Position numbers and translations under genes: made by a program
Source of the DNA: a virus
Reading direction: 5' to 3' (one strand)
Length of the DNA stretch: 64,000 nt
Virus record (IMG/VR): IMGVR_UViG_3300010885_050982
Location: 39,388-103,387 of that record
Shown: in pieces, positions 4,951-38,910 of the stretch
How positions within the stretch are numbered: position 1 is the first letter of the stretch
Layout: each line of letters opens with the position of its first letter
Notes under the pieces: generated by a model
The model's database searches: none
Told to the model about the DNA's origin: nothing
The model's input: the letters and a program-made list of their open reading frames with translations, nothing else

Positions 4951-7728
4951 ATGACGATCGATACAGAAATCGCAAAACGTATTCAGGCGGCAAGGGTTGC
5001 GTACGATCATCAGCGTGAACTGTATGCGGGTCCGACACGGTGGATTACGGTCGGCGCGGTCGATCATCACGGCGGCACTCACGTCGAGATTGACGGACAA
5101 GGCAACATTTCCAAAGGTCCTTCCGGGATGAAGGGCAGTAATATTGCAAACCTGAAGAAGCCAGCATCAGTGGGGATTCCCGGACATCGACCGCCATCGA
5201 ATGTGGGGATTCCTGGACATCGACCGCCATCGAATGTGGGGATTCCCGGACATCGACCGCCATCGAATGTGGGGATTCCTGGACATCGACCGCCATCGAA
5301 TGTTGGAATGCCTGGCATGCGACCACCCAACCAAGACGGAATTCCAGGTCATAGGCCACCGTCCGGGCAGTCGATGCCGGGGAATCGAAATGCGGTTCCA
5401 CCACAGCAGGCGCAGCCAGCCGGGCAGAATCCGCAAGAGAAGCCAATTCCAGGCGAACCCGCCCCTTTGAAGCAAGCGGTGGAGCAACTTGGAGCGCAGC
5501 AGCAACCGACGACGCCACCGCCACCGGGACGACTGTATTCGCCGAACCCAGCGTTTGGAGAAGCGGCAAGAGTCGGGGTTCCCGGCAATAAAACTCCTCC
5601 ATTGCCGCCGCTTGAATACTTCAGACTGCCAAACCTGAACCCAGAAGAACGTGCAGTCGAAAAGGGTTTTATGGATCAGTACCAGTCCGATCCTGACGGC
5701 CAGGCCGATGCGATGATCCAAGCGATGGCAAAAGGCATGGGCGACGGTCCAAACATTTTCGCAACCGACGAGGCGAAAGGCTTGGTCAAGGAATGGAAGG
5801 GGACAAAAGTCCCTGAAATGGGGCCGGATGGAAAGCAAGCTGTCGACAAGGATGGGAATCCGAAATGGGATCTCAGTCCTGAAACAAAAGAGTATCGATC
5901 AAAGTACAACACGGCGCTTCACCAGACAGCGAACGCATTGGCGAAGCGAGCGTTCTTGAAATACCTCGATACCGTTGTTGCAAACGGTCCACCGGAAAAG
6001 AGAAACATTCTCGTTACTGCTGGTGGAGTTGCCTGTCACGGTAGAGGCACTCCTGTCGTGATGTTCGACGGAACCCTCAAGAATGTCGAAGATGTCGTTG
6101 AGGGCGATAAACTAATGGGTCCAGATTCAACTGAACGAACTGTAATGCTGACGCATTCAGGTCGCGACATGCTTTACAACGTAACTCCGCATCGTGGCGA
6201 CTCGTTTACGGCGAATGGTTCTCACGTTTTGGCGATTCACGCTCAGTTGCGACGAAAAGTGAATGGCGTCGAGATTCCGTATTCTGGCAAGATCACGATT
6301 ACTGTTGACGACTATCTTGCGAAAAGCGGTCGATTCAAGGCGAATTGCTATTTGTATCGAAGAGGGATTGAGTTTGCCGAGTCTCGTGTTCCGCTTGATC
6401 CATACTTCTTGGGATTGTGGCTTGGGGATGGAACGCATTGCCTGCCAGCGGTCACGTCTGCCGATCCAGAAATCGCGGAGTTCATGCAGCAGTTCACTCG
6501 CAAGCAACCACGAATGAAGCTGATGGTTCACGCAAAGCCGGACAATGCCGCATCCGTGTATCAAATGTCGTATCTGGATTCGACGCCACAGAAAGGCGAT
6601 GGATACCGAAAAGGGTGTCGCCCAAATCCAATCACGGCAAGACTGAAGGAGGCGGGTGTTTTAAGAAACAAACACATTCCTCAACAGTATTTAGCCAACT
6701 CCAGCTCCGTGAGGCTTCAATTGCTTGCTGGGTTGCTAGATTCAGATGGGTCGTACAATGCTGACCGGAAATCGTTTGAGATTACCACCAAAATCGAGCG
6801 TATGGCGAAAGAGATTCAGTTCCTTGCCAGATCAATTGGATTCCAAGCGTCGATCAATGAGAAGATCGTGAGAAATAATTGGACCGGGAAGTCAGGCGTC
6901 TATTTCCGTCTTCACATCGGCGGAAACGATCTTGAATTGATTCCGACAAAGATCCTGAGAAAGCAGGCGGAGTCAAGACCAGCAGAGCGAACAGACGGAA
7001 GGGTGTCTCGCGACGTTCGGCACTCAAGTTTCAGGGTCGATCCAATCGGAGAAGATGAGTTCTTCGGTTTCACGCTGAATAAAGATCATCTGTACTTGCT
7101 TGGCGACTTTACGGTTACCCACAATTCAGGCAAGGGGTTCGCGCTTGAGAATGTTGACCAGACGAAGAGCTTGCAAAAAATGGCTGGTGCTGTGTGGGAC
7201 ACTGCCGGAGAGCAGAACAGCACCGAACTCGGATGGGTCGCCGAAGAGTGCAAGAAACGTGGACTGAAGATGCACGCCGTATTCGTTCACTCCAAGCCAA
7301 GCGAGACATGGGAAAACCCGGAGCGAGGTGTGATCGAGCGAGCCAATAAAAAGGGCCGCATGGTCGACGCCAGAGCGTTCGCGGACTCTTACACGTATGG
7401 CGCGCAGAACTTCCACAAGTTTTCCCAGAAGTACGCGAACGACCCTAACGTTCACGTTACCGTTCTCGACAACACTCGGCCACCGGTGCCAGATCTGGAC
7501 GAAAACGGAGTTCAGAAGATCGACAAAAAGGGAAAGCCAGCCAAAAAGCCGGACGTCGTCGCGATCCCGTCTGTCCCGCAAGAAATGTTGTCGATGGACC
7601 CGGATGCATTGTACGCTCATTGCATCGAAGCACTGGCAAAATTCCCAGCCTCAGATGCCGTCAAGCAGGGCGGTTCCGCAGGTACAAGAATTTGGCCGGA
7701 AACGCTGACGGGCGGTCGAAAACAGTGA
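4951..7728 (+). CDS. Polyvalent protein with Pro-rich linker and zeta-toxin-like P-loop kinase, intein-containing
   Basis: After intein removal the Walker A reads ILVTAGGVA-SGKG; downstream VWDTAGE and AVFVH...IERANKKGRMV resemble zeta-toxin/AAA_33 kinases. Confidence 0.72.
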   Translation: MTIDTEIAKRIQAARVAYDHQRELYAGPTRWITVGAVDHHGGTHVEIDGQGNISKGPSGMKGSNIANLKKPASVGIPGHRPPSNVGIPGHRPPSNVGIPGHRPPSNVGIPGHRPPSNVGMPGMRPPNQDGIPGHRPPSGQSMPGNRNAVPPQQAQPAGQNPQEKPIPGEPAPLKQAVEQLGAQQQPTTPPPPGRLYSPNPAFGEAARVGVPGNKTPPLPPLEYFRLPNLNPEERAVEKGFMDQYQSDPDGQADAMIQAMAKGMGDGPNIFATDEAKGLVKEWKGTKVPEMGPDGKQAVDKDGNPKWDLSPETKEYRSKYNTALHQTANALAKRAFLKYLDTVVANGPPEKRNILVTAGGVACHGRGTPVVMFDGTLKNVEDVVEGDKLMGPDSTERTVMLTHSGRDMLYNVTPHRGDSFTANGSHVLAIHAQLRRKVNGVEIPYSGKITITVDDYLAKSGRFKANCYLYRRGIEFAESRVPLDPYFLGLWLGDGTHCLPAVTSADPEIAEFMQQFTRKQPRMKLMVHAKPDNAASVYQMSYLDSTPQKGDGYRKGCRPNPITARLKEAGVLRNKHIPQQYLANSSSVRLQLLAGLLDSDGSYNADRKSFEITTKIERMAKEIQFLARSIGFQASINEKIVRNNWTGKSGVYFRLHIGGNDLELIPTKILRKQAESRPAERTDGRVSRDVRHSSFRVDPIGEDEFFGFTLNKDHLYLLGDFTVTHNSGKGFALENVDQTKSLQKMAGAVWDTAGEQNSTELGWVAEECKKRGLKMHAVFVHSKPSETWENPERGVIERANKKGRMVDARAFADSYTYGAQNFHKFSQKYANDPNVHVTVLDNTRPPVPDLDENGVQKIDKKGKPAKKPDVVAIPSVPQEMLSMDPDALYAHCIEALAKFPASDAVKQGGSAGTRIWPETLTGGRKQ
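5170..5301 (+). repeat. 33-bp coding tandem repeat x4 (VGIPGHRPPSN), followed by two degenerate units
   Basis: gtggggattcc[c/t]ggacatcgaccgccatcgaat at 5170, 5203, 5236 and 5269. Confidence 0.97.
6034..7125 (+). mobile_element. Intein with LAGLIDADG homing endonuclease (364 aa)
   Basis: Starts CHGRGTPVVMFDG, block B FTANGSHVL, LAGLIDADG motifs PYFLGLWLGDG and LLAGLLDSDG, ends FTVTHN followed by Ser +1. Confidence 0.95.
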
Positions 7729-16475: not shown

Positions 16476-19400
16476 ATGGAAACGACCGAACGAATCGCCA
16501 GAGCGATGGAACGATACTCGAAGGAATTCGAGTCGAAGCATCCCCGCGATCAGGATGGGATGTTTGCTGAAAAAATAGAGTCGACAGCAGCGATGGCAGA
16601 CGGGGCATTCAATCCATCCTGGAGCGTCCGTAAGCATGGTCGCATGGACTGCTTGATGCCAGTCAACCACGACAGCAAGCCGTTTGTTGCAGAGCTGCAA
16701 AGAATCAGCAGTTCGCTATATGATCTCGATAAAGACGATCCTGAGCAAAAGTTCGCAATCGACATCGAGAATCGCATAGGACAGGCTGTCCACGAATTCA
16801 CATTCAGGAACGTTCACACGGAATACGGAAACGAAAAGTCGGCATTTGGCGTCACTGGGACTGGATCTGCCACGGAGGTCGTCAAGAATGCTGCGGCATG
16901 CTTAATCAAGGCGATCAAGTTGTATTCGCACGCTCTTCCTGTAATCTACTTCACTGCCGCAGAGAGAAGCCGAATTGGCTTGTATTCGCTGCTTTCTAAA
17001 CGGGCTGAAAAAGTGACTGGATATATTGGATACCGCGTTGATCTTGGAAATTCCGATCATGCGCTGTTTGCTCTTGTCGACCCAAGCAAGGCGACGGAGT
17101 TCGAGTCTGTAATCAGACGCCAAAATGCTAAAGTTGAGCGATACCAGAAATGGGACGAGTCGAAGCACGTTCGCGACGAAGTCGGAAAGTTCGCAAATAA
17201 ATCGTCATCAGGTTCGATCAGCGAATCCGACAAAGTTGCGATGCCGTTCGATCCATTCCCGAAAACATTCAAGGAAATGAAGAACCGGGATTATGTCGAC
17301 GTATGGCATGGAACAACATTACAGCGGCTTGAGAAGATTATCGAAAGCGGTAAGACGAAAACTGGCGAGCGAGGTCAGTTTTTGGTGTCCCCAAGATTCC
17401 GCCATGCAAGCCAATATCCAGAGTTCCCTGGAGAAGACGAAGATCCAATCGTCGTCTCGATTCGAGTTCCAGTGAGCAATCTCCTTCCAGACGAAAATGA
17501 TCAACCGGGAATTAGCCTTGAGCAATCGCTTTTTGGCAATCACTTCGGGCTTGCTGCTGATGTCGATGGAGGAATAGACATCTCTCAGATTCGCGGAGTC
17601 TACGGTGAGTCTGTCGATGATGCATGGACAGTTGCTGAAACTGGCAGGCATGTTGCCGAATCAATTCTCAAAAACAAGTCGAATCGGCTCGATCCTGTCG
17701 AGTCTGCTCGCATTGATTACGCCGAAAACGGCACGAAATCAAAAGCGTTTAAGGCATGGTTCGGCGACTCGAAGGTTGTCGATTCCGATGGCGAGCCACA
17801 AGAAACGCACGGGACCGCGAAACCGGTCTACCACGGGACCCCGCATGACTTCGAAGCTTTCGACAGCAGTACGCAAGACTGGTCGTGCGAGGTCGGGAAA
17901 GGGTTCTACTTCACGGACAACGAAGAACTGGCGAGATCAGAATATTCGAAGGGCGGAAAAGTCATCGCCGCGTACCTGAAGATTGACAAGCCTTTGGATT
18001 TGGACAAACCAATCTCCGACTCTGATCGTGACGCGATCATGGAAGCGGGCAAGAAAAAATTCAATCATGTCGACTGGAACGCTCCCAGCGGACTGACCGG
18101 GGACGGCATTCACAGGTGGATCGACAATCAGCTCGGAACAGCATTCGTCAACGACGTCATTGAGGCTGCTGGTTTCGATGGGATCACTCACATTGCGAGA
18201 AATAAACTGGGGGGTCGCGATAAAAAGAAGATGGATGACTTCGGTCGCGTCTGGATTGCGTTTGCCCCCTCGCAAGTGAAAAGTACTGACAATCGAGGGA
18301 CGTTTGACCCGAAAGACAATCGCATGGCATATTCCAAGAGAATTGCGAATGCTATCGAGATGTATTCGTTCGACCCAAGTCAACCACGGGACAAGTCTGG
18401 CCAATGGACAGCCTACGACATCGGCCACAAATCGGGGATGAACGGGTTTGTCAGCAAAAGAGAAAGGCAAAAAGCCCTTCGCGAAAACGGGCACGATATT
18501 GCTGATTCAAAAGTGATGCAAGAGTTCAATCGTGGGCACAGCGATGCTATAAGCCAAAAGCAGAACGAAAGGGAGCAGGCGAAGAATCTGCGACTCGCCC
18601 CATTCATAGAGGCTGCGAGGAAAAACTGGAAGCCTGGAGATTTCGACATTGACGATAGCGATACGCAAGCATGGGAGGCGAAATTAAAATCGATCGCTGA
18701 GGAAGATGCAGACAATGCAGACAATGAAATGGATGCTGAGAACGAAAAACAGCAACAAATCAATCGAGACATGAAAAAACACCTTGTTTCCGAAGAAGTT
18801 ACATCAAGAGCCAGAAAGATTGTTGGCGATTGGGCGAAAGATCATGGATGGGAAGTATCGAACGAACATTCGTCTCGAACGAATTCGCATTACTGCACCC
18901 TTGCGAAAAGAAACGGAGACGAGGAGGAATCGTTTACTGTTCGCGTTTCGGATCATCACGCACCGCATGGAAGCGGCTTCAATGAGGCTAAGCAGGAGTA
19001 CCATGAGCCATCTGATGTGAATATTGTTCCTGAACTACCACCTTATGATGACGAATCAGACTGGAAAGAGTTTGACGTTAAGTCTGGCCCGGATTGGTCA
19101 AGATTCACCGTTGACACCACTGAACTTGATAAGATGGCGAGAGGCGATGCCACAGACAGGCAGTCCTATTCCAAGAGAATCCAATCCGTCCTTGAACGGT
19201 ACTCGAAAAAACCAGGCGAGAAGAAAGAGCACAAATTCAGTTCGACTCAAATCGACGTTCCACCAGAGATCGCAGAGAAAATCAGGAAACTTGCCGAGCG
19301 AATCCCGGACAATCAGCTTGCCGACGATGGTCGCGAAACAGACTTCCACATTACGGCGCTTTTCGGCCTGCACACGAACGATCCTGACGACGTGAAGGAA

Positions 19401-20939
19401 GTTCTGTACGGCCAGCGTCCAGTAACGATCGTCTTTGGGAAGACGTCAATCTTCTCGAATGCCGATGCGGACGTCCTGAAACTCGAGATACTGGGCGACG
19501 GTATTCGGGAATTGAACAAGCGGCTGAAGAAAGGATGCGAACACACAGAAACTCACCCGACGTACCAGCCGCATTGTACGGTCGCCTATCTCAAGCCGGG
19601 GAAAGGCCACTTCTGGGTCGGCGGCGAAATGTTCGATCAATTGAAGTTCGATGCTGATGAAGTACAGTTCTCGAATAAGCAGCGGGAAAAGACGCCGATC
19701 TATTTGGTTTCAGAATCGAAGGAAATCGACGGTCGGATAATTCGAGCGAAAGAGTTGTACGCCAAGCATAAACCAGCAGCAGGGCAATCTTCGTTCAACT
19801 GGGATGAATCAAGAGTCACAAGGGATGATGAAGGGAAATTTGAGCACTGGAACACCGGCGAAGTGTCGGCATCGGCGCGTCCGCTTATCGTCGATTTTGA
19901 ACGACAAAATGATCGAGTGGAATTCAAACCACCGTCGCAATGGACAGATTCCGATAAGAGAAAAGCGAAACGACTGATCGCAGGTGCAAAAGCGGCAATG
20001 GAAGATCCACATTCAACAGGTCCATCGCTGTCGCATCCGATCCATACCAAGGAGTCTGCCGAAAAAGCAATGTGGAAAGCGTTGGAGGTCAGGAATTTTG
20101 GGACAGCCATGAGCAATCGATACGACGGCGATGATGGCGGACTGGAGAGCCTTGGACGCAAAATGCTTCAAGCTGCCAAGGACGAGATGGAATATGGTTA
20201 TGAGAAACGTCAGTTGGCGACACTGAAGAAGCCAAGGCAGAAAACAGGATTTGACCGGGAACTGGAAATCATGTTTGCAGCAGACAACTACTCAAGAGCC
20301 AAGCAGATCGTCGAAATCTACGGGAAGAAACCCGCAGGCGGACAACGGTCAATGTTTGACGAAGAGGATCATCCACGGGACCCGGCAAGCGGTGAGTTCG
20401 TCGAAAAGGATGGCGGCGCGGCCGCGAACGCATGGAAACCAGAGAATCACGTCAAAATCGCAGCCGATTCGATCGAGCGACTGCGCGGCGGAGACGTGTA
20501 TCGGCTTCTCGATTCGTCCCCGCCGGGAAACATGAATCAGATGGCTGAGTACATCCGTAAAAGCAGGCCGGACCTCGCCGGGCATGTTCAGGAAGCGACG
20601 GACGACATCAACGAAGATCGCGGAACGAAACCGCCAGAGCCGAAGCCAATGGAGCGTGTCGGCGTGCCAGGCATGCAAAAGAACCTGTTCGACGAAGAGC
20701 CGAGCGGACAAAAGCAGTTGTTCGACTACATCGCACCCAGCAAGAAAGACGTCAAGAAAGCGAAACAGGAAGACTTGCTTGCTGGCGTCAACTCTCGACT
20801 GAAGGAGCAACTTAAAAACAAGGAAACTCTGTCACCGGCGGACCTGCTCACGAACGTAACTCATGAGCCTCTCGCCGGGCAGCGTGATTTATTCACAAAG
20901 CGATTCGATATCGCTAAAGAACGGTTCAATCGGAAGTAA
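16476..20939 (+). CDS. Polyvalent protein: two ADP-ribosyltransferase-like domains, 2H phosphoesterase and other modules
   Basis: VWHGTT (ART-like); FKAWFGDSKVVD...VYHGT...GFYFTD...GFDGI...QVKS..NRGTFD (ART-PolyVal-like); HITALFG and PHCTVAY (two HxT motifs). Confidence 0.85.
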   Translation: METTERIARAMERYSKEFESKHPRDQDGMFAEKIESTAAMADGAFNPSWSVRKHGRMDCLMPVNHDSKPFVAELQRISSSLYDLDKDDPEQKFAIDIENRIGQAVHEFTFRNVHTEYGNEKSAFGVTGTGSATEVVKNAAACLIKAIKLYSHALPVIYFTAAERSRIGLYSLLSKRAEKVTGYIGYRVDLGNSDHALFALVDPSKATEFESVIRRQNAKVERYQKWDESKHVRDEVGKFANKSSSGSISESDKVAMPFDPFPKTFKEMKNRDYVDVWHGTTLQRLEKIIESGKTKTGERGQFLVSPRFRHASQYPEFPGEDEDPIVVSIRVPVSNLLPDENDQPGISLEQSLFGNHFGLAADVDGGIDISQIRGVYGESVDDAWTVAETGRHVAESILKNKSNRLDPVESARIDYAENGTKSKAFKAWFGDSKVVDSDGEPQETHGTAKPVYHGTPHDFEAFDSSTQDWSCEVGKGFYFTDNEELARSEYSKGGKVIAAYLKIDKPLDLDKPISDSDRDAIMEAGKKKFNHVDWNAPSGLTGDGIHRWIDNQLGTAFVNDVIEAAGFDGITHIARNKLGGRDKKKMDDFGRVWIAFAPSQVKSTDNRGTFDPKDNRMAYSKRIANAIEMYSFDPSQPRDKSGQWTAYDIGHKSGMNGFVSKRERQKALRENGHDIADSKVMQEFNRGHSDAISQKQNEREQAKNLRLAPFIEAARKNWKPGDFDIDDSDTQAWEAKLKSIAEEDADNADNEMDAENEKQQQINRDMKKHLVSEEVTSRARKIVGDWAKDHGWEVSNEHSSRTNSHYCTLAKRNGDEEESFTVRVSDHHAPHGSGFNEAKQEYHEPSDVNIVPELPPYDDESDWKEFDVKSGPDWSRFTVDTTELDKMARGDATDRQSYSKRIQSVLERYSKKPGEKKEHKFSSTQIDVPPEIAEKIRKLAERIPDNQLADDGRETDFHITALFGLHTNDPDDVKEVLYGQRPVTIVFGKTSIFSNADADVLKLEILGDGIRELNKRLKKGCEHTETHPTYQPHCTVAYLKPGKGHFWVGGEMFDQLKFDADEVQFSNKQREKTPIYLVSESKEIDGRIIRAKELYAKHKPAAGQSSFNWDESRVTRDDEGKFEHWNTGEVSASARPLIVDFERQNDRVEFKPPSQWTDSDKRKAKRLIAGAKAAMEDPHSTGPSLSHPIHTKESAEKAMWKALEVRNFGTAMSNRYDGDDGGLESLGRKMLQAAKDEMEYGYEKRQLATLKKPRQKTGFDRELEIMFAADNYSRAKQIVEIYGKKPAGGQRSMFDEEDHPRDPASGEFVEKDGGAAANAWKPENHVKIAADSIERLRGGDVYRLLDSSPPGNMNQMAEYIRKSRPDLAGHVQEATDDINEDRGTKPPEPKPMERVGVPGMQKNLFDEEPSGQKQLFDYIAPSKKDVKKAKQEDLLAGVNSRLKEQLKNKETLSPADLLTNVTHEPLAGQRDLFTKRFDIAKERFNRK

Positions 20940-28194: not shown

Positions 28195-28842
28195 ATGCGG
28201 AAAAAGCTAGGAAAACGAAATGTCGCACACACAGGGGCCATGTGGCAACCCGGCGACTGGTCGTACATCCAATCGCATTATTGTAGTGGTCACTGGATCG
28301 GAGCCAACATCGAATGGTGGTATTCGGAGTGTGTAATCGCATCAAATCGGTCCGCGACCGTCGACTTTGAGGCAATGGTCGGTCGTGAACCGTTTATCGC
28401 GGATGATGTCAAGCCGGATGGATCTACGGTTCGCCAGAGGGAGCGACTTGCAGTCGGGTTTTTCTTTCGGTGGAAGAATCAGATGGTGACAGTCAATTCG
28501 TTCGCGAAAGACGGTTCGTACCTGAACGCGACGACGTATTTTAGCGAGAACCAAATGTGCGATTCTTTAACACCAAACCGCCGGGGGGTTAAGCGATTCA
28601 AGATCACGCGACAGGCAATTATCGACGATCGGGCAGAGCGAAAAGAGCGAGCAGAGATCGAGAGCAAACTGACAGACTTTGCCATTCAAGCCGATCGAAC
28701 GCAGCCGGAAGCGAAAATGGTGGCAAAGATCCTGAAGTCTCTCGGCGTCAAGAAGCGATGCGAACTCGCATCCATGCCGATAGAAAAATTACGAAGTGTG
28801 GCGGAAAAGTATCTCGGTAAACAAACGAAAGAGAAAAAATGA
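28195..28842 (+). CDS. Hypothetical protein (start uncertain)
   Basis: Stop overlaps the dnaN start. Confidence 0.5.
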   Translation: MRKKLGKRNVAHTGAMWQPGDWSYIQSHYCSGHWIGANIEWWYSECVIASNRSATVDFEAMVGREPFIADDVKPDGSTVRQRERLAVGFFFRWKNQMVTVNSFAKDGSYLNATTYFSENQMCDSLTPNRRGVKRFKITRQAIIDDRAERKERAEIESKLTDFAIQADRTQPEAKMVAKILKSLGVKKRCELASMPIEKLRSVAEKYLGKQTKEKK

Positions 28843-29939
28843 ACTTGGTATTCAATCGACATCAAATCACAGACGCCTTCAAGGCAATCTCGGGTGTTAT
28901 CAATCCCAGGACTCCGAAAGAGATATTGAAATCGGTCAAGCTCCAGTGGGGAGGGAACCGATTCTTGCTACTGGGGTCGGACTCGGAAATCAATATGCGA
29001 GTCCATATTGACGTTCCCTTGGAAGAATCGGGCGAGTCCCTGATCCCTGTTGCCAGGGTGAATCAGATCTTGTCGACACTCAGGGAAGACACTGTTGCAT
29101 TCTCGATTACAAGTAAGCGAATCGACATCAAAAGCGGACCGGCAAAGTTTTCTCTTGCGACCGAGAACGCTCAGGACTTCCCGCCAATCGAAGATTTCAC
29201 GGAAACGGACTTCTATCAAATTACAGCCGCCAACTTGCGGACATTGATTTCGCAAACGGTTTTCGCCGTAGATGAGACGTCGACCAGATATTCTCTTGGC
29301 GGGTTGTGTATGGAGCTTGATGGTGACATCTTTACGATGGTCTCGACGGACTCTCGAAGGCTTGCTGCTGCTCAATCGGCAGTAAAAGTTGTTGGCAAGC
29401 CGGAATGGCAAAGCCGACCTGTTATACCAGAGAAAGCGGCAAAACTGATTAAGTCGGTATGCACTGACGGGGACGTTCAGTTTGCAATTCGACCAAATTC
29501 AGCGACATTTCGAACAAAAGATTCCGTGATTGTCGCGAACCTAGTTACGGGGAGGTTTCCTGACTACAAAGCAGTGATTAGATCTGTTTCCGCTTGGAAA
29601 ACAGAATTTGTTGCCGGGCCACTTCTTTCTGCAATCCGACAGTCGATGATCGTGAAAACGAACACAGAATCACGGGGAGTCGATTTTGTTTTTGGAAACG
29701 GGACCCTGAAACTCTCCAGCGAACAGGCGTCAGTCGGTGAGTCCGTGGTGGAGATCCCGATTTCGCACGAATCTCCGCAAATCTGCATTTGCCTTGACCC
29801 TAACTGGTTCGTGGACTATCTCTCGACGTTCGAGCCTACGCAATTGATAGAAATCGGAATCGAAACAGAAAACCATCCGGTTACCCTGACGACCCCCGAT
29901 TATCAATATGTCATCATGCCAATCGGAGCATCGAGATAG
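28839..29939 (+). CDS. dnaN: DNA polymerase III beta sliding clamp
   Basis: 366 aa; QTVFAVDETSTRYSLGG, STDSRRLA, GRFPDYKAVI, YVIMPI. Confidence 0.93.
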   Translation: MNLVFNRHQITDAFKAISGVINPRTPKEILKSVKLQWGGNRFLLLGSDSEINMRVHIDVPLEESGESLIPVARVNQILSTLREDTVAFSITSKRIDIKSGPAKFSLATENAQDFPPIEDFTETDFYQITAANLRTLISQTVFAVDETSTRYSLGGLCMELDGDIFTMVSTDSRRLAAAQSAVKVVGKPEWQSRPVIPEKAAKLIKSVCTDGDVQFAIRPNSATFRTKDSVIVANLVTGRFPDYKAVIRSVSAWKTEFVAGPLLSAIRQSMIVKTNTESRGVDFVFGNGTLKLSSEQASVGESVVEIPISHESPQICICLDPNWFVDYLSTFEPTQLIEIGIETENHPVTLTTPDYQYVIMPIGASR

Positions 29940-35047: not shown

Positions 35048-35105
35048 AAAATTTGGCAACGTGAAAACGAGCCGCACCCAAGTTTGGGATGCGGCTTTTA
35101 TTTTT
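35048..35105 (+). promoter_or_regulatory. Conserved leader element copy 3
   Basis: AAAATTTGGCAACGTGAAAACGAGCCGCA-CCCAA-gt-TTGGG-aTGCGGCTTTTATTTTT upstream of the major capsid gene. Confidence 0.75.
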
Positions 35106-35118
35106 GAAAGGCTCCACG

Positions 35119-36186
35119 ATGGCTCCAGCGCTCAATAAGGTTTTACCAAACGCGTACAACGTTTACGTTCCGAATGCCAAAGACAGCGGAAATCTGTTTG
35201 TCGATTTCTCGCGAAATATGACGGACTGGGCCGTCAATCGGTACTGCCAAATTGTTCCTGTACAACAAACGGTTGGTATCTGGTATCAGATGGGCTTGGA
35301 TCAGCGTGCTCGTTTGATCGATAACGACCGGGCAAAGTATCGTTGGGCGCCGGGGCAGGATCGGCCTGATCCACACGACCAAGGAGATTATTTCTCGGAA
35401 CTGGGTTTCAGGTGTCAGCGGAACACGTATGTTGATCGGCTCGATAAAATGATGAACGAGCAGGCGGTCTGGGACGAGCGGAAGCGTCGAACCGACGCAC
35501 TCGCTCAGCTTGCGATGACCGCGCGAACCAATGCGGTGCTCGCCAAATTGACCGACTCGACGCAGTATCCATCGTCGCACGTACTTGACCTGTCGACCAG
35601 CGCATTCACTGGCCAGACGGGGAACTGGGCGGCTTCGACGAGCGCCCGCGAAACAATCAAGCGGACGCTGAACTACGCCAAAAAGATTATCACATTGGAT
35701 ACCCGCGCTGCGGTCAAATCCAAGAACCTGCTGATCGTCATGGGGCCGGAAACTGCCGAGCAAATTTCCGTGACTCAGGAAATTGTCGAGCTTGTCAAGC
35801 AAAACGCGAATGGAATCGACTATTTGCGAAACAAAGGCGAGTTTTCAAAGATGAATTATGGTCTTCCTGACCGTCTTTACGACACGGAATACGTGATCGA
35901 AGACACAGTGTACGTGAGCACGCAACGTGGTCTGATCACTCAGACGGCGGCGTTCTCACTGCCAATTGGGACCGTGCTCGTCCTTCACCGACCAAACGAC
36001 CTGGAAGGCGTCGAAGGCGGTCGTAGCTTCTCGACAGTGTCGATGCACATCTACCGTCAAGACGACATGATGGTCGAATCGGACAGCGATAGCTGGAACC
36101 GGGTTGAAAAGATCGCCGTCACCGATACCTGGGACGTGAACATGACCGCACCGGTGTCCGGCGTCCTGTTGCAGAACGTGTGCTGA
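35119..36186 (+). CDS. Major capsid protein (HK97 fold)
   Basis: 355 aa, position after protease and decoration genes, C-terminal APVSGVLLQNV typical of gpE-like capsids. Confidence 0.82.
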   Translation: MAPALNKVLPNAYNVYVPNAKDSGNLFVDFSRNMTDWAVNRYCQIVPVQQTVGIWYQMGLDQRARLIDNDRAKYRWAPGQDRPDPHDQGDYFSELGFRCQRNTYVDRLDKMMNEQAVWDERKRRTDALAQLAMTARTNAVLAKLTDSTQYPSSHVLDLSTSAFTGQTGNWAASTSARETIKRTLNYAKKIITLDTRAAVKSKNLLIVMGPETAEQISVTQEIVELVKQNANGIDYLRNKGEFSKMNYGLPDRLYDTEYVIEDTVYVSTQRGLITQTAAFSLPIGTVLVLHRPNDLEGVEGGRSFSTVSMHIYRQDDMMVESDSDSWNRVEKIAVTDTWDVNMTAPVSGVLLQNVC

Positions 36187-37429: not shown

Positions 37430-37972
37430 ATGTTGCGACGTCTGATAATCTGGATTCTTCAATGCCTCGGGTTCGATCCCAGGGGCATTTTCTCGTTTTG
37501 GGATGGCAAACGGTGGCGACATGCCGATCCGTTTGTGGTCGCGCGAAAGCTGTGGGCCGTCGAGATTCCTGACAATGCGATCCCAAACATCAAGGGGCCA
37601 CTCGTTCCATTTGAATCTGAATCTTCACGCCGCCTGATTCAAAGCGGGATCGGGAGCCAGATTGAGCGAGGGTACTCGGAGGTGTCGAGCGCTGTCCGGG
37701 CGGCGTTCGGCGTCGTTCCATTGAGAGAAGGTGGTCTTACGGAAGCGGAGTGCGATGATCTTCTCCAGAGGTTCGAAAACTACATGGGTGACGTAAAAAA
37801 AAATGGCAGTGGCTCGCCGACTTCGCCACTCAGTACGGATTCGACCGAAAAATCAACCACGAACAGCGGTTCGGCTGCTGGCTCAACCTCAACCGATCAA
37901 GCCTTCGTTCTTCCCGATGTGTCGGGTATGGAACTCACTTCGGGAGAGATTTTTCACTCGACCAATGCATAG
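37430..37972 (+). CDS. Tail assembly chaperone (zero-frame product)
   Basis: AAGGAG RBS; follows tail tube; A9 slippery run at 37795-37803. Confidence 0.7.
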   Translation: MLRRLIIWILQCLGFDPRGIFSFWDGKRWRHADPFVVARKLWAVEIPDNAIPNIKGPLVPFESESSRRLIQSGIGSQIERGYSEVSSAVRAAFGVVPLREGGLTEAECDDLLQRFENYMGDVKKNGSGSPTSPLSTDSTEKSTTNSGSAAGSTSTDQAFVLPDVSGMELTSGEIFHSTNA

Positions 37973-38061
37973 CCGGGAACGAGACTGTTCTTCGCGGGCA
38001 AATGGAAGCGTGGGAAATTGACCGGGAAATAGACCGTAGAAAAAGGATATTCGGACGATGA
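37430..38061 (+). CDS. Tail assembly chaperone -1 frameshift product (gpGT-like)
   Basis: -1 frame after the A9 run is open: KWQWLADFATQYGFDRKINHEQRFGCWLNL... to TGA 38059-38061, which overlaps the next ATG. Confidence 0.72.
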
Positions 38062-38736
38062 ACGCTTGGGTTGAAATCAGGGCCGGTGAAGGTGGAGACG
38101 ACGCGAAATCGCTTGTTCGCGAACAAGCTTCGGTTTATTCGAAAGCAGCGAGACGGAGGTCGCTTTGACGTAGAAATTGTCGACGATCGTGCCGGTATGA
38201 TCGTCATGCGAATTGTCGGGAAAGATTCGTGGAGTCTCTTCAAGCACGAATCTGGAGGTCATCGATGGCAGCGCATTCCACCAAATGAACGCAAGGGTAA
38301 GGTTCACTCGTCGACAGTCACGGTCGCTGTTTTCAGGGACGTTCCGACAGCGGAGTTTCGGCTCAACGAAAATGATCTGGAAATTTCGACGTGCCGAGGT
38401 TCAGGTCCAGGTGGACAGCACCGCAACAAAACCGATTCGGCGGTTCAGGTAAAGCACAAGCCGACCGGGATGATCGTCAGGTGCGAAACAGAGCGATCGC
38501 AGCAGCAGAACAAGCATTCGGCCATCGCGTTACTCACGTCCCGGCTGGCGTCAATCCAGCAAGCTTCCGCTATGCGATCGGAAGACGACAACCGAAGGCG
38601 GCAAATAGGCAGCGGTGAGCGATCCGACAAGATCCGGACCGTCCAGATGCAAAACGGGCAGGTTGTCAATAACGTGACTGGAAAAAGAATGTCGGTCGAA
38701 GCATACATGAAAGGCGACATCGACTCGATACAGTAA
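38058..38736 (+). CDS. Truncated class-1 peptide chain release factor (RF1-like, about 225 aa), expressed via +1 frameshift
   Basis: ORF A 38058-38168 MNAWVEIRAGEGGDDAK...RRRSL*; ORF B from 38167 DVEIVD...ESGGHRWQRIPPNERKGKVHSSTVTVAV...GSGPGGQHRNKTDSAV...ERSQQQNK...GERSDKIRT. Confidence 0.9.
38155..38169 (+). promoter_or_regulatory. prfB-type +1 programmed frameshift cassette
   Basis: GGAGG-TCG-CTT-TGA-C: internal SD, 3-nt spacer, in-frame CUU-UGA-C. Confidence 0.88.
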
Positions 38737-38910
38737 TCCGGACGAATAAAAAGTTTGATCCAGTTGGAGATTTCGTTCGTTGTTGAGATTGCCGATCCTT
38801 GTCTTGCGGACGTTACAGGCCGCACGATACAACAATATTTTGTCAAGCCCCTCTTTTAGCCATATCTGTAACTATGGCTGATTGCAGGGGTTTTTTATTC
38901 GGCTCGGGTT

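Follow-up and report, generated by a model that had tools for sequence, protein, structure and literature searches.

A phage gene for a 225-aa release factor of RF1 descent is in all likelihood expressed through a programmed +1 frameshift. The gene lies in a 103,387-bp linear IMG/VR virus record (CheckV completeness 82%), whose 3' 64 kb, the whole stretch of DNA analysed here, is referred to as the window. The two-frame architecture of the gene, the continuous RF1 homology and fold over the junction of the frames, and the conservation of the cassette among relatives were shown by sequence comparison and structure prediction.

Gene layout and the joined protein

The features of the gene are collected in Table 1. 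Its ATG (38058-38060) is preceded by an in-frame TAG seven codons upstream, and the preceding ORF stops at 37972, leaving a gap of 85 nt. The initial annotation had placed the ATG over an upstream TGA; the two do overlap, at 38059-38061, but that TGA is not the end of any ORF of at least 30 aa. From the ATG, 36 sense codons are read before the TGA at 38166-38168. The resulting peptide, MNAWVEIRAGEGGDDAKSLVREQASVYSKAARRRSL, begins MNAWVEIRAGEGGDDAK and ends RRRSL, and corresponds to the first strand and helix alpha5 of release factor domain 2, including the tip motif GEGGDDA. The +1 frame starts with GAC at 38167 (DVEIVDD...) and runs through QRIPPNE and GGQ to a TAA at 38734-38736. Reading CTTT as a single step gives the joined 225-aa protein (P0001). 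Re-reading of the sequence confirmed that the ORF track starts this gene in the wrong frame, and confirmed the ATG, the TGA after 36 codons and the context GGAGG-TCG-CTT-TGA-C (38155-38169), as the initial annotation had described.

Table 1. Positions of the features of the release factor gene in the window
Feature	Position	Strand	Basis or remark
Putative ribosome binding site AAGGA	38043..38047	+	10 nt 5' of the ATG; read from sequence, weak, consensus-like match only
ORF1, frame 0: 36 codons and TGA	38058..38168	+	PCRF match, codon-position variability
Internal Shine-Dalgarno-like GGAGG	38155..38159	+	3 nt before CTT
Shift site CTT TGA C	38163..38169	+	Leu codon in P site, UGA in A site, then C
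ORF2, +1 frame: residues 37-225 and TAA	38167..38736	+	Remaining domain 2, domains 3 and 4
Codon-recognition loop QRIPPNE (PPN vs PxT of RF1)	38269..38289	+	Translation, alignments
GGQ catalytic motif	38410..38418	+	Residues 118-120; invariant in family alignments
Intrinsic terminator: nested hairpin, then U run	38845..38900	+	About 110 nt past the TAA

The 64-kb window contains the 15-nt cassette GGAGGNNNCTTTGAC a single time (0.01 expected), whereas CTTTGAC alone is no commoner there than chance predicts (11 found vs 11.2 expected). What makes the site significant is therefore its position and phase within a release factor gene, and its conservation in relatives.

The phage origin given in the initial annotation is borne out by the viral record in IMG/VR and by a head-protein gene nearby. 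With 52% GC, the record is densely packed with coding sequence when read in the standard code (coding density 0.886, table 11), and no tRNA genes were found in its 103 kb; on these two grounds an alternative genetic code was rejected. TGA terminates 74 of the 113 ORFs in the record (65%, a crude ORF-based count), and is thus a common gene end, as had been stated before. The gene follows a block with the major head protein gene (35089-36186), and the strong terminator (-25 kcal/mol, z -5.5, none of 200 shuffles as stable) precedes a primosomal-like gene downstream. This position between head-gene block and terminator, in the gene order of a single phage, suggests late expression. No conserved gene neighbours were found in relatives.

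Three other plus-strand genes of the window were noted. A 925-aa ORF (4951-7728) carries Hint and LAGLIDADG homing-endonuclease domains mid-protein and looks like an intein in a phage gene; a 1487-aa polyvalent protein (16476-20939) contains ART-PolyVal ADP-ribosyltransferase and 2',5' RNA ligase superfamily domains; and a phage DNA polymerase III beta sliding clamp, complete in its three domains, is encoded at 28839-29939.

P0001 matched PCRF (PF03462, 4.4e-20) over residues 2-89, across the junction at 36/37, and the RF-1 domain (PF00472, 1.9e-30) over residues 99-202. Its NCBIfam scores were 216.4 bits for RF1, 145 for RF2, 94.1 for PrfH and 39.7 for ArfB, all under the curated cut-offs (400 bits for the RF1 equivalog, NF001859 / TIGR00019; 166.65 for PrfH; 100 for ArfB). 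The RF1 match covered only positions 105-334 of the 347 in the model; domain 1 (about 105 residues) is absent, and P0001 starts at the first strand of domain 2. Its alignment to RF1 structures is continuous, with ...AARRRSL/DVEIVD... (junction at the slash) lying on ...AERKGWNLEVAE... of T. maritima RF1. The AlphaFold2 model of P0001 had a mean pLDDT of 83.6, with 95-97 around the junction, which forms a turn between helix alpha5 and the next strand. The model superposed on ribosome-bound, open RF1 with a TMq of 0.85-0.88. P0001 is domains 2, 3 and 4 of RF1, with GGQ and without domain 1, and the RF1-type product lacking domain 1 that had been described from the sequence is upheld by the top-scoring model, the start of the match and the RF1-like fold.

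The recognition loop, earlier called an RF1-like variant, is one: it has PPN instead of PxT. In the decoding pocket the equivalent of Gln181, which belongs to the third-base pocket of RF1, is retained. Three positions are changed: Thr186 of PxT is Asn, Thr194 is Ser (HSST vs HTST) and Glu119 at the alpha5 tip is Asp. These residue numbers, mapped via the alignment to RF1 structures, are those we take to apply to T. thermophilus RF1. Asp at the alpha5 tip is a hallmark of the family (138 of 147 members), and the tripeptide of relatives is PPT or PPN, PPT in most. Since the pocket differs from that of RF1, specificity cannot be read from the sequence.

Conservation and origin of the frameshift cassette

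DNA was compared at 80 viral, 80 bacterial-genome and 80 metagenome loci. The bacterial-genome set held 7 short factors, the rest being true prfA, and deduplication gave 147 unique short-factor genes from phages, metagenomes and a few bacterial genomes. An IMG/VR query with the single protein gave no pattern match for close relatives, but a query with the family alignment did retrieve them.

A +1 shift at the same codon is needed in 117 of the 147 genes, and every shift is +1. Another 20 have an in-frame stop at or near the site without a change of frame, and 10 are unbroken. The codon before the stop is CTT in all 117 frameshifted genes, with zero entropy at all three bases, including the synonymous third base. 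The stop is TGA in 83, TAG in 30 (26%) and TAA in 4 (3%), and the base after it is C in 97 (83%), G in 15, A in 4 and T in 1. GGNGG stands exactly 3 nt 5' of CTT in 65 of the 117. Where Arg-Arg is encoded at the Shine-Dalgarno position, the codons are CGG-AGG in 32 of 37 cases (first 65 genes), with the second Arg always AGG or AGA; the Arg codons appear to be chosen so as to spell GGAGG. The initial annotation had proposed a check on homologues for conservation of the cassette at this codon, and CTT-stop was indeed found there in diverged relatives, often with the SD-N3 before it. No conserved RNA structure was seen around the site (0 pairs in 30 sequences), nor does the shift require one.

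For the 117 relatives, entropy per column in the 90 nt 5' of the stop was 0.86/0.70/1.49 at frame-0 codon positions 1/2/3. Past the site it followed the +1 phase (1.36/0.99/1.67), so that the phase switches exactly at the site. Among the nearest 120 database proteins, 58 are unbroken ORFs of 220-230 aa, and 47 have unrelated N-termini ending in ...F-D/E, F-S or F-N. These endings are the +1-frame reading of xTT-TGA, xTT-TAG and xTT-TAA.

An assembly or sequencing indel, or a decaying pseudogene, is hardly credible as the source of the two frames. The record is a single metagenomic assembly, but the same +1 break occurs at the same CTT-stop in 117 independent diverged genes from many samples, a random event would not produce SD-N3-CTT-TGA-C, and coding constraint persists in both halves of the gene. 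It is also very unlikely that the locus makes two products, with the 36-aa ORF a leader or untranslated and the protein starting in the +1 frame at TTG 38071 or ATG 38197 behind GGAGG as ribosome binding site. No stop interrupts the +1 frame after TTG 38071, and gene callers choose that start (P0002, 221 aa); yet the frame-0 peptide corresponds to the conserved domain 2 strand and helix (EIRAxEGGDDAK) and evolves as coding sequence in frame 0, while in relatives the N-termini read in the +1 frame vary in length and are unrelated junk. Moreover, no start codon stands at a usable distance past GGAGG, the first ATG being about 38 nt off, and the invariant CTT would have no role. Indel, pseudogene and two separate proteins were all rejected, as they cannot account for the comparative data.

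Two further observations were made on the frameshifted genes. Their own terminators are TAA in 64 of 117 cases, even in GC-rich contigs with TGA-dominated neighbours. The Archangium gephyra SDU49 chromosome (3540019-3546679, L085) contains a short release factor gene with CTT-TAG-C; this myxobacterium can be cultivated, its genome is complete, and it might serve for experiments.

The 20 in-frame-stop genes (among them L194, L004, L006, L008, L196, L198, L201, L203, L208, L212 and L219) mostly have TGA followed by C or A, with no slippery CTT and no frame change. On plasmid 2 of Variovorax sp. SRS16 (L194, 3959-4663), the TGA stands at the conserved Trp of RF1 (AKG*LNLEV vs KGWNLEV, the asterisk being the stop), and PGAP splits this relative into two CDS. 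The in-frame-stop genes may represent readthrough gating of the same family, or may belong to recoded phages; the loci were examined through 5.6-kb flanks, where local coding density fits neither reading specifically.

Some of these relatives are huge and carry tRNA genes (G001, locus L008; G002, locus L004; G003, locus L006; tRNA loci L164-L193). In two huge proviruses the short release factor gene stands between tRNA-Glu(ctc) and tRNA-Glu(ttc), in arrays of 47 and at least 18 tRNAs. G002 has a tRNA with anticodon tta, and G003 has one with anticodon cta and a tmRNA; these suppressor tRNAs do not fit the in-frame TGA of their own release factor genes, and no suppressor tRNA matching the in-frame stop was seen in the tRNA-bearing huge relatives. 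A tRNA gene was present in the fetched flanks of 60 of 166 loci.

The origin of the cassette was addressed with a maximum-likelihood tree from a quick search, with SH-aLRT support only and a bacterial RF1 sample that spans few phyla. In this tree 81 short factors formed a single clade (support 100) beside 27 bacterial RF1 sequences. The two deepest branches of the clade were unbroken genes and the frameshifted forms filled the rest, with a few unbroken or in-frame-stop forms nested within them. TAG and TAA versions were interspersed with TGA ones (9 changes for 10 TAG rows). Since the basal genes carry no break, the cassette arose inside the RF1-derived family and not by inheritance from prfB. 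The shift site aligns to the end of helix alpha5 in domain 2 (the 'RKGW' position of RF1), which is non-homologous to the prfB site; together with the unbroken basal genes, this supports the earlier statement that the cassette was not inherited in place from prfB. The basal genes read ...CGG CGT GGT TTT GAG... (RRGFE). Insertion of one C before TTT would give GGT CTT TGA G, that is, the cassette, with the Shine-Dalgarno-like element supplied by the Arg-Arg codons.

Proposed mechanism and what the stop may sense

CUU-UGA-C with a Shine-Dalgarno element 3 nt upstream is the signal of prfB, and UGA-C is a weak terminator. In the phage gene, ribosomes would start at the ATG, read 36 codons and pause when CUU occupies the P site and UGA-C the A site, and during the pause GGAGG would pair with 16S rRNA. 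A host factor, RF2 here because the stop is UGA, could then terminate and release a useless 36-aa peptide. Alternatively, the peptidyl-tRNA(Leu) would slip from CUU to UUU, GAC would be read next, and the full factor would be made. Synthesis of the phage factor would thus depend inversely on the speed of host termination at that stop. The full factor would end translation at stops, most likely UAA and UAG, without needing RF3; Mora and colleagues reportedly found in 2003 that RF1 and RF2 lacking domain 1 still perform codon-dependent peptide release but are not functional with RF3. Such extra RF1-type activity could remove UAA sites from RF2. As an RF1-type factor cannot relieve slow UGA termination, control by RF2 would be heterologous and its benefit is conjectural.

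Our preferred reading is that the yield of the factor is tied to slow host termination, by RF2 at UGA-C in this phage. A different possibility, raised in the initial annotation, was that the PPN loop confers UGA reading. This was not supported, since relatives with PPT carry the same cassette and the stop does not co-vary with PPT or PPN: TGA sites are found with 40 PPT and 29 PPN loops, and TAG sites with 15 PPT and 9 PPN. The nearest relative compared at the DNA level (L195, 67% identical, also PPN) has CTT-TAG-C. Among the family members compared, no covariation of the shift-site stop with the tripeptide or with other pocket residues was detected, and sister pairs that differ in the stop showed no consistent pocket change. 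Sensing of host RF2 fits better than UGA reading conferred by PPN.

True autoregulation, in which the short factor reads UGA or all three stops through its altered pocket and controls itself as RF2 does, is rather improbable. It would draw on the Asp in place of the alpha5-tip Glu in nearly all members, on PPN and HSST in this protein and on TGA being the main stop codon of the phage; if all stops were read, TGA, TAG and TAA could freely replace one another at the site and every gene would still be under its own control. However, the protein fits RF1 models with a much higher score than RF2 models and keeps the Gln of the RF1 third-base pocket, and the lack of covariation between tripeptide and shift-site stop speaks against this reading as well. 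If a factor tolerated G at both the second and the third position, it would recognise UGG (Trp) too, which would be harmful.

The main rival to host-termination sensing, which we consider doubtful but less so than autoregulation, is a fixed attenuation with no feedback, in which a slow A-site codon lets a roughly constant small share of ribosomes make a factor that is harmful in excess. Close relatives differ in whether they use TGA, TAG or TAA, as would equally be expected if it made little difference which stop occupies the site, and three stops that switch as often as the tree indicates are in favour of attenuation. The same can be said of the 20 relatives with an in-frame stop and no slippery codon. 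We also found no link between the shift-site stop and stop usage in neighbouring genes (TGA 46% vs 49% of neighbouring stops), which was alike at TGA-site and TAG-site loci. Overproduction of release factor lowers fitness in B. subtilis according to a recent survey (PMC12421855). Against attenuation, a weak promoter or weak ribosome binding site would be a cheaper route to the same end. The sites further combine all the prfB elements of efficiency and release-factor sensitivity, namely the Shine-Dalgarno element at exact spacing, CTT, and a C after the stop that is almost never replaced by T. In addition, any stop in the A site is inherently read in competition with release factors.

Host-termination sensing can be extended to the family as a whole. 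We propose tentatively, as possible though not probable, that the family is a stop-gated sensor of termination capacity, working by +1 shift or by readthrough, with either cross-specificity control by RF2 or a factor that reads all stops.

Relation to known release factors and significance

Frameshifting of the +1 type at CUU-stop has for forty years been the textbook self-regulation device of a single gene, prfB, and the autoregulatory programmed frameshift of this bacterial RF2 gene was reportedly described by Craigen and Caskey in 1986. The phage gene shares with prfB the identical CUU UGA C, the Shine-Dalgarno-like element with a 3-nt spacer, the Leu-Asp junction and the lack of downstream RNA structure. 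Both are class-I release factor genes, with a yield that would depend on release-factor activity via the A-site stop. In contrast to prfB, the phage gene is of RF1 and not RF2 descent, and its site lies at codon 36 in domain 2 of a protein without domain 1, while that of prfB lies in domain 1, near codon 25. Where the stop is UGA, the factor sensed (RF2) is probably not the factor made. The stops differ as well: TAG and TAA make up 26% and 3% of the phage family sites, whereas for prfB the survey gives TAG in 0 of 8,164 genomes and TGA in 98.6% (PMC12421855).

Bacterial RF1 (prfA) is the best match of the phage protein in sequence and fold (about 40% identity), and the two share GGQ, the third-base-pocket Gln and a P-x-[T/N] loop. 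The phage protein differs in the missing domain 1, in its score (216 vs 400 bits), in PPN for PxT and in Asp for the alpha5-tip Glu. Moreover, prfA has no known programmed frameshift according to two sources (PMC12421855; PMC5009743). PrfH (RF-H, paired with RtcB) also lacks domain 1 and keeps domains 2-4, but it is a weak match for the phage protein (94.1 vs 166.65 bits), which retains RF1 decoding elements. No RtcB was found in the 103-kb record; the PrfH/RtcB pair was rejected on this ground and on the score below cut-off. ArfB was rejected as well, as its match (39.7 vs 100 bits) covers the GGQ segment only and P0001 has domains 2 and 4.

Among viral factors, the RF1 and RF2 genes of huge or recoded phages are likewise phage-borne and often stand beside tRNA genes (PMC7162821; bioRxiv 10.1101/2021.08.26.457843). 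The accessible parts of the same two sources mention no frameshift, internal stop or loss of domain 1, and the present phage differs in its standard code and lack of tRNA genes. The eRF1-type gene of Mimivirus and Megavirus is also a viral termination factor gene interrupted by recoding signals, and needs frameshift and readthrough (PMC3521657). It differs from the phage gene in belonging to the unrelated archaeo-eukaryotic eRF1 family, in its eukaryotic host and in its other signals (PMC3521657).

The literature at hand holds no counterpart of this arrangement. A 2025 survey covering over 12,000 genomes reports programmed frameshifting for prfB and no conserved signal in prfA, with TAG absent among 8,164 prfB sites (PMC12421855). 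A major review states that a counterpart with UAG in the RF1 gene is unknown (PMC5009743), and in RECODE all CUU-stop cases are prfB (PMC10885494). A survey of how release factors evolved is silent on both phages and frameshifts in the part available. No description of a frameshifted short phage release factor was found in the literature searched, which held few subscription journals and some papers as partial text. GenBank phage and plasmid records carried no programmed-frameshift annotation, and in the phage records that contain the gene it is unannotated.

Judged from these gene sequences, the same device has evolved independently in an RF1-derived phage family, with UGA, UAG and UAA versions side by side. 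Gene calls are corrected by this result, as databases hold genes of the family as N-terminally wrong or split proteins. The family is a natural experiment on what the stop of a frameshift site senses, and it suggests that phages bring to the host ribosome a class of small termination factors, probably independent of RF3. If the tentative sensor reading is true, an RF3-independent, RF1-derived factor would be made only when ribosomes wait too long at a chosen stop. This would be either the first case of one release factor (host RF2) controlling a factor of opposite specificity, or a case in which the altered pocket, with its Asp tip and PPN or PPT, reads all three stops and every version of the gene would be self-regulating.
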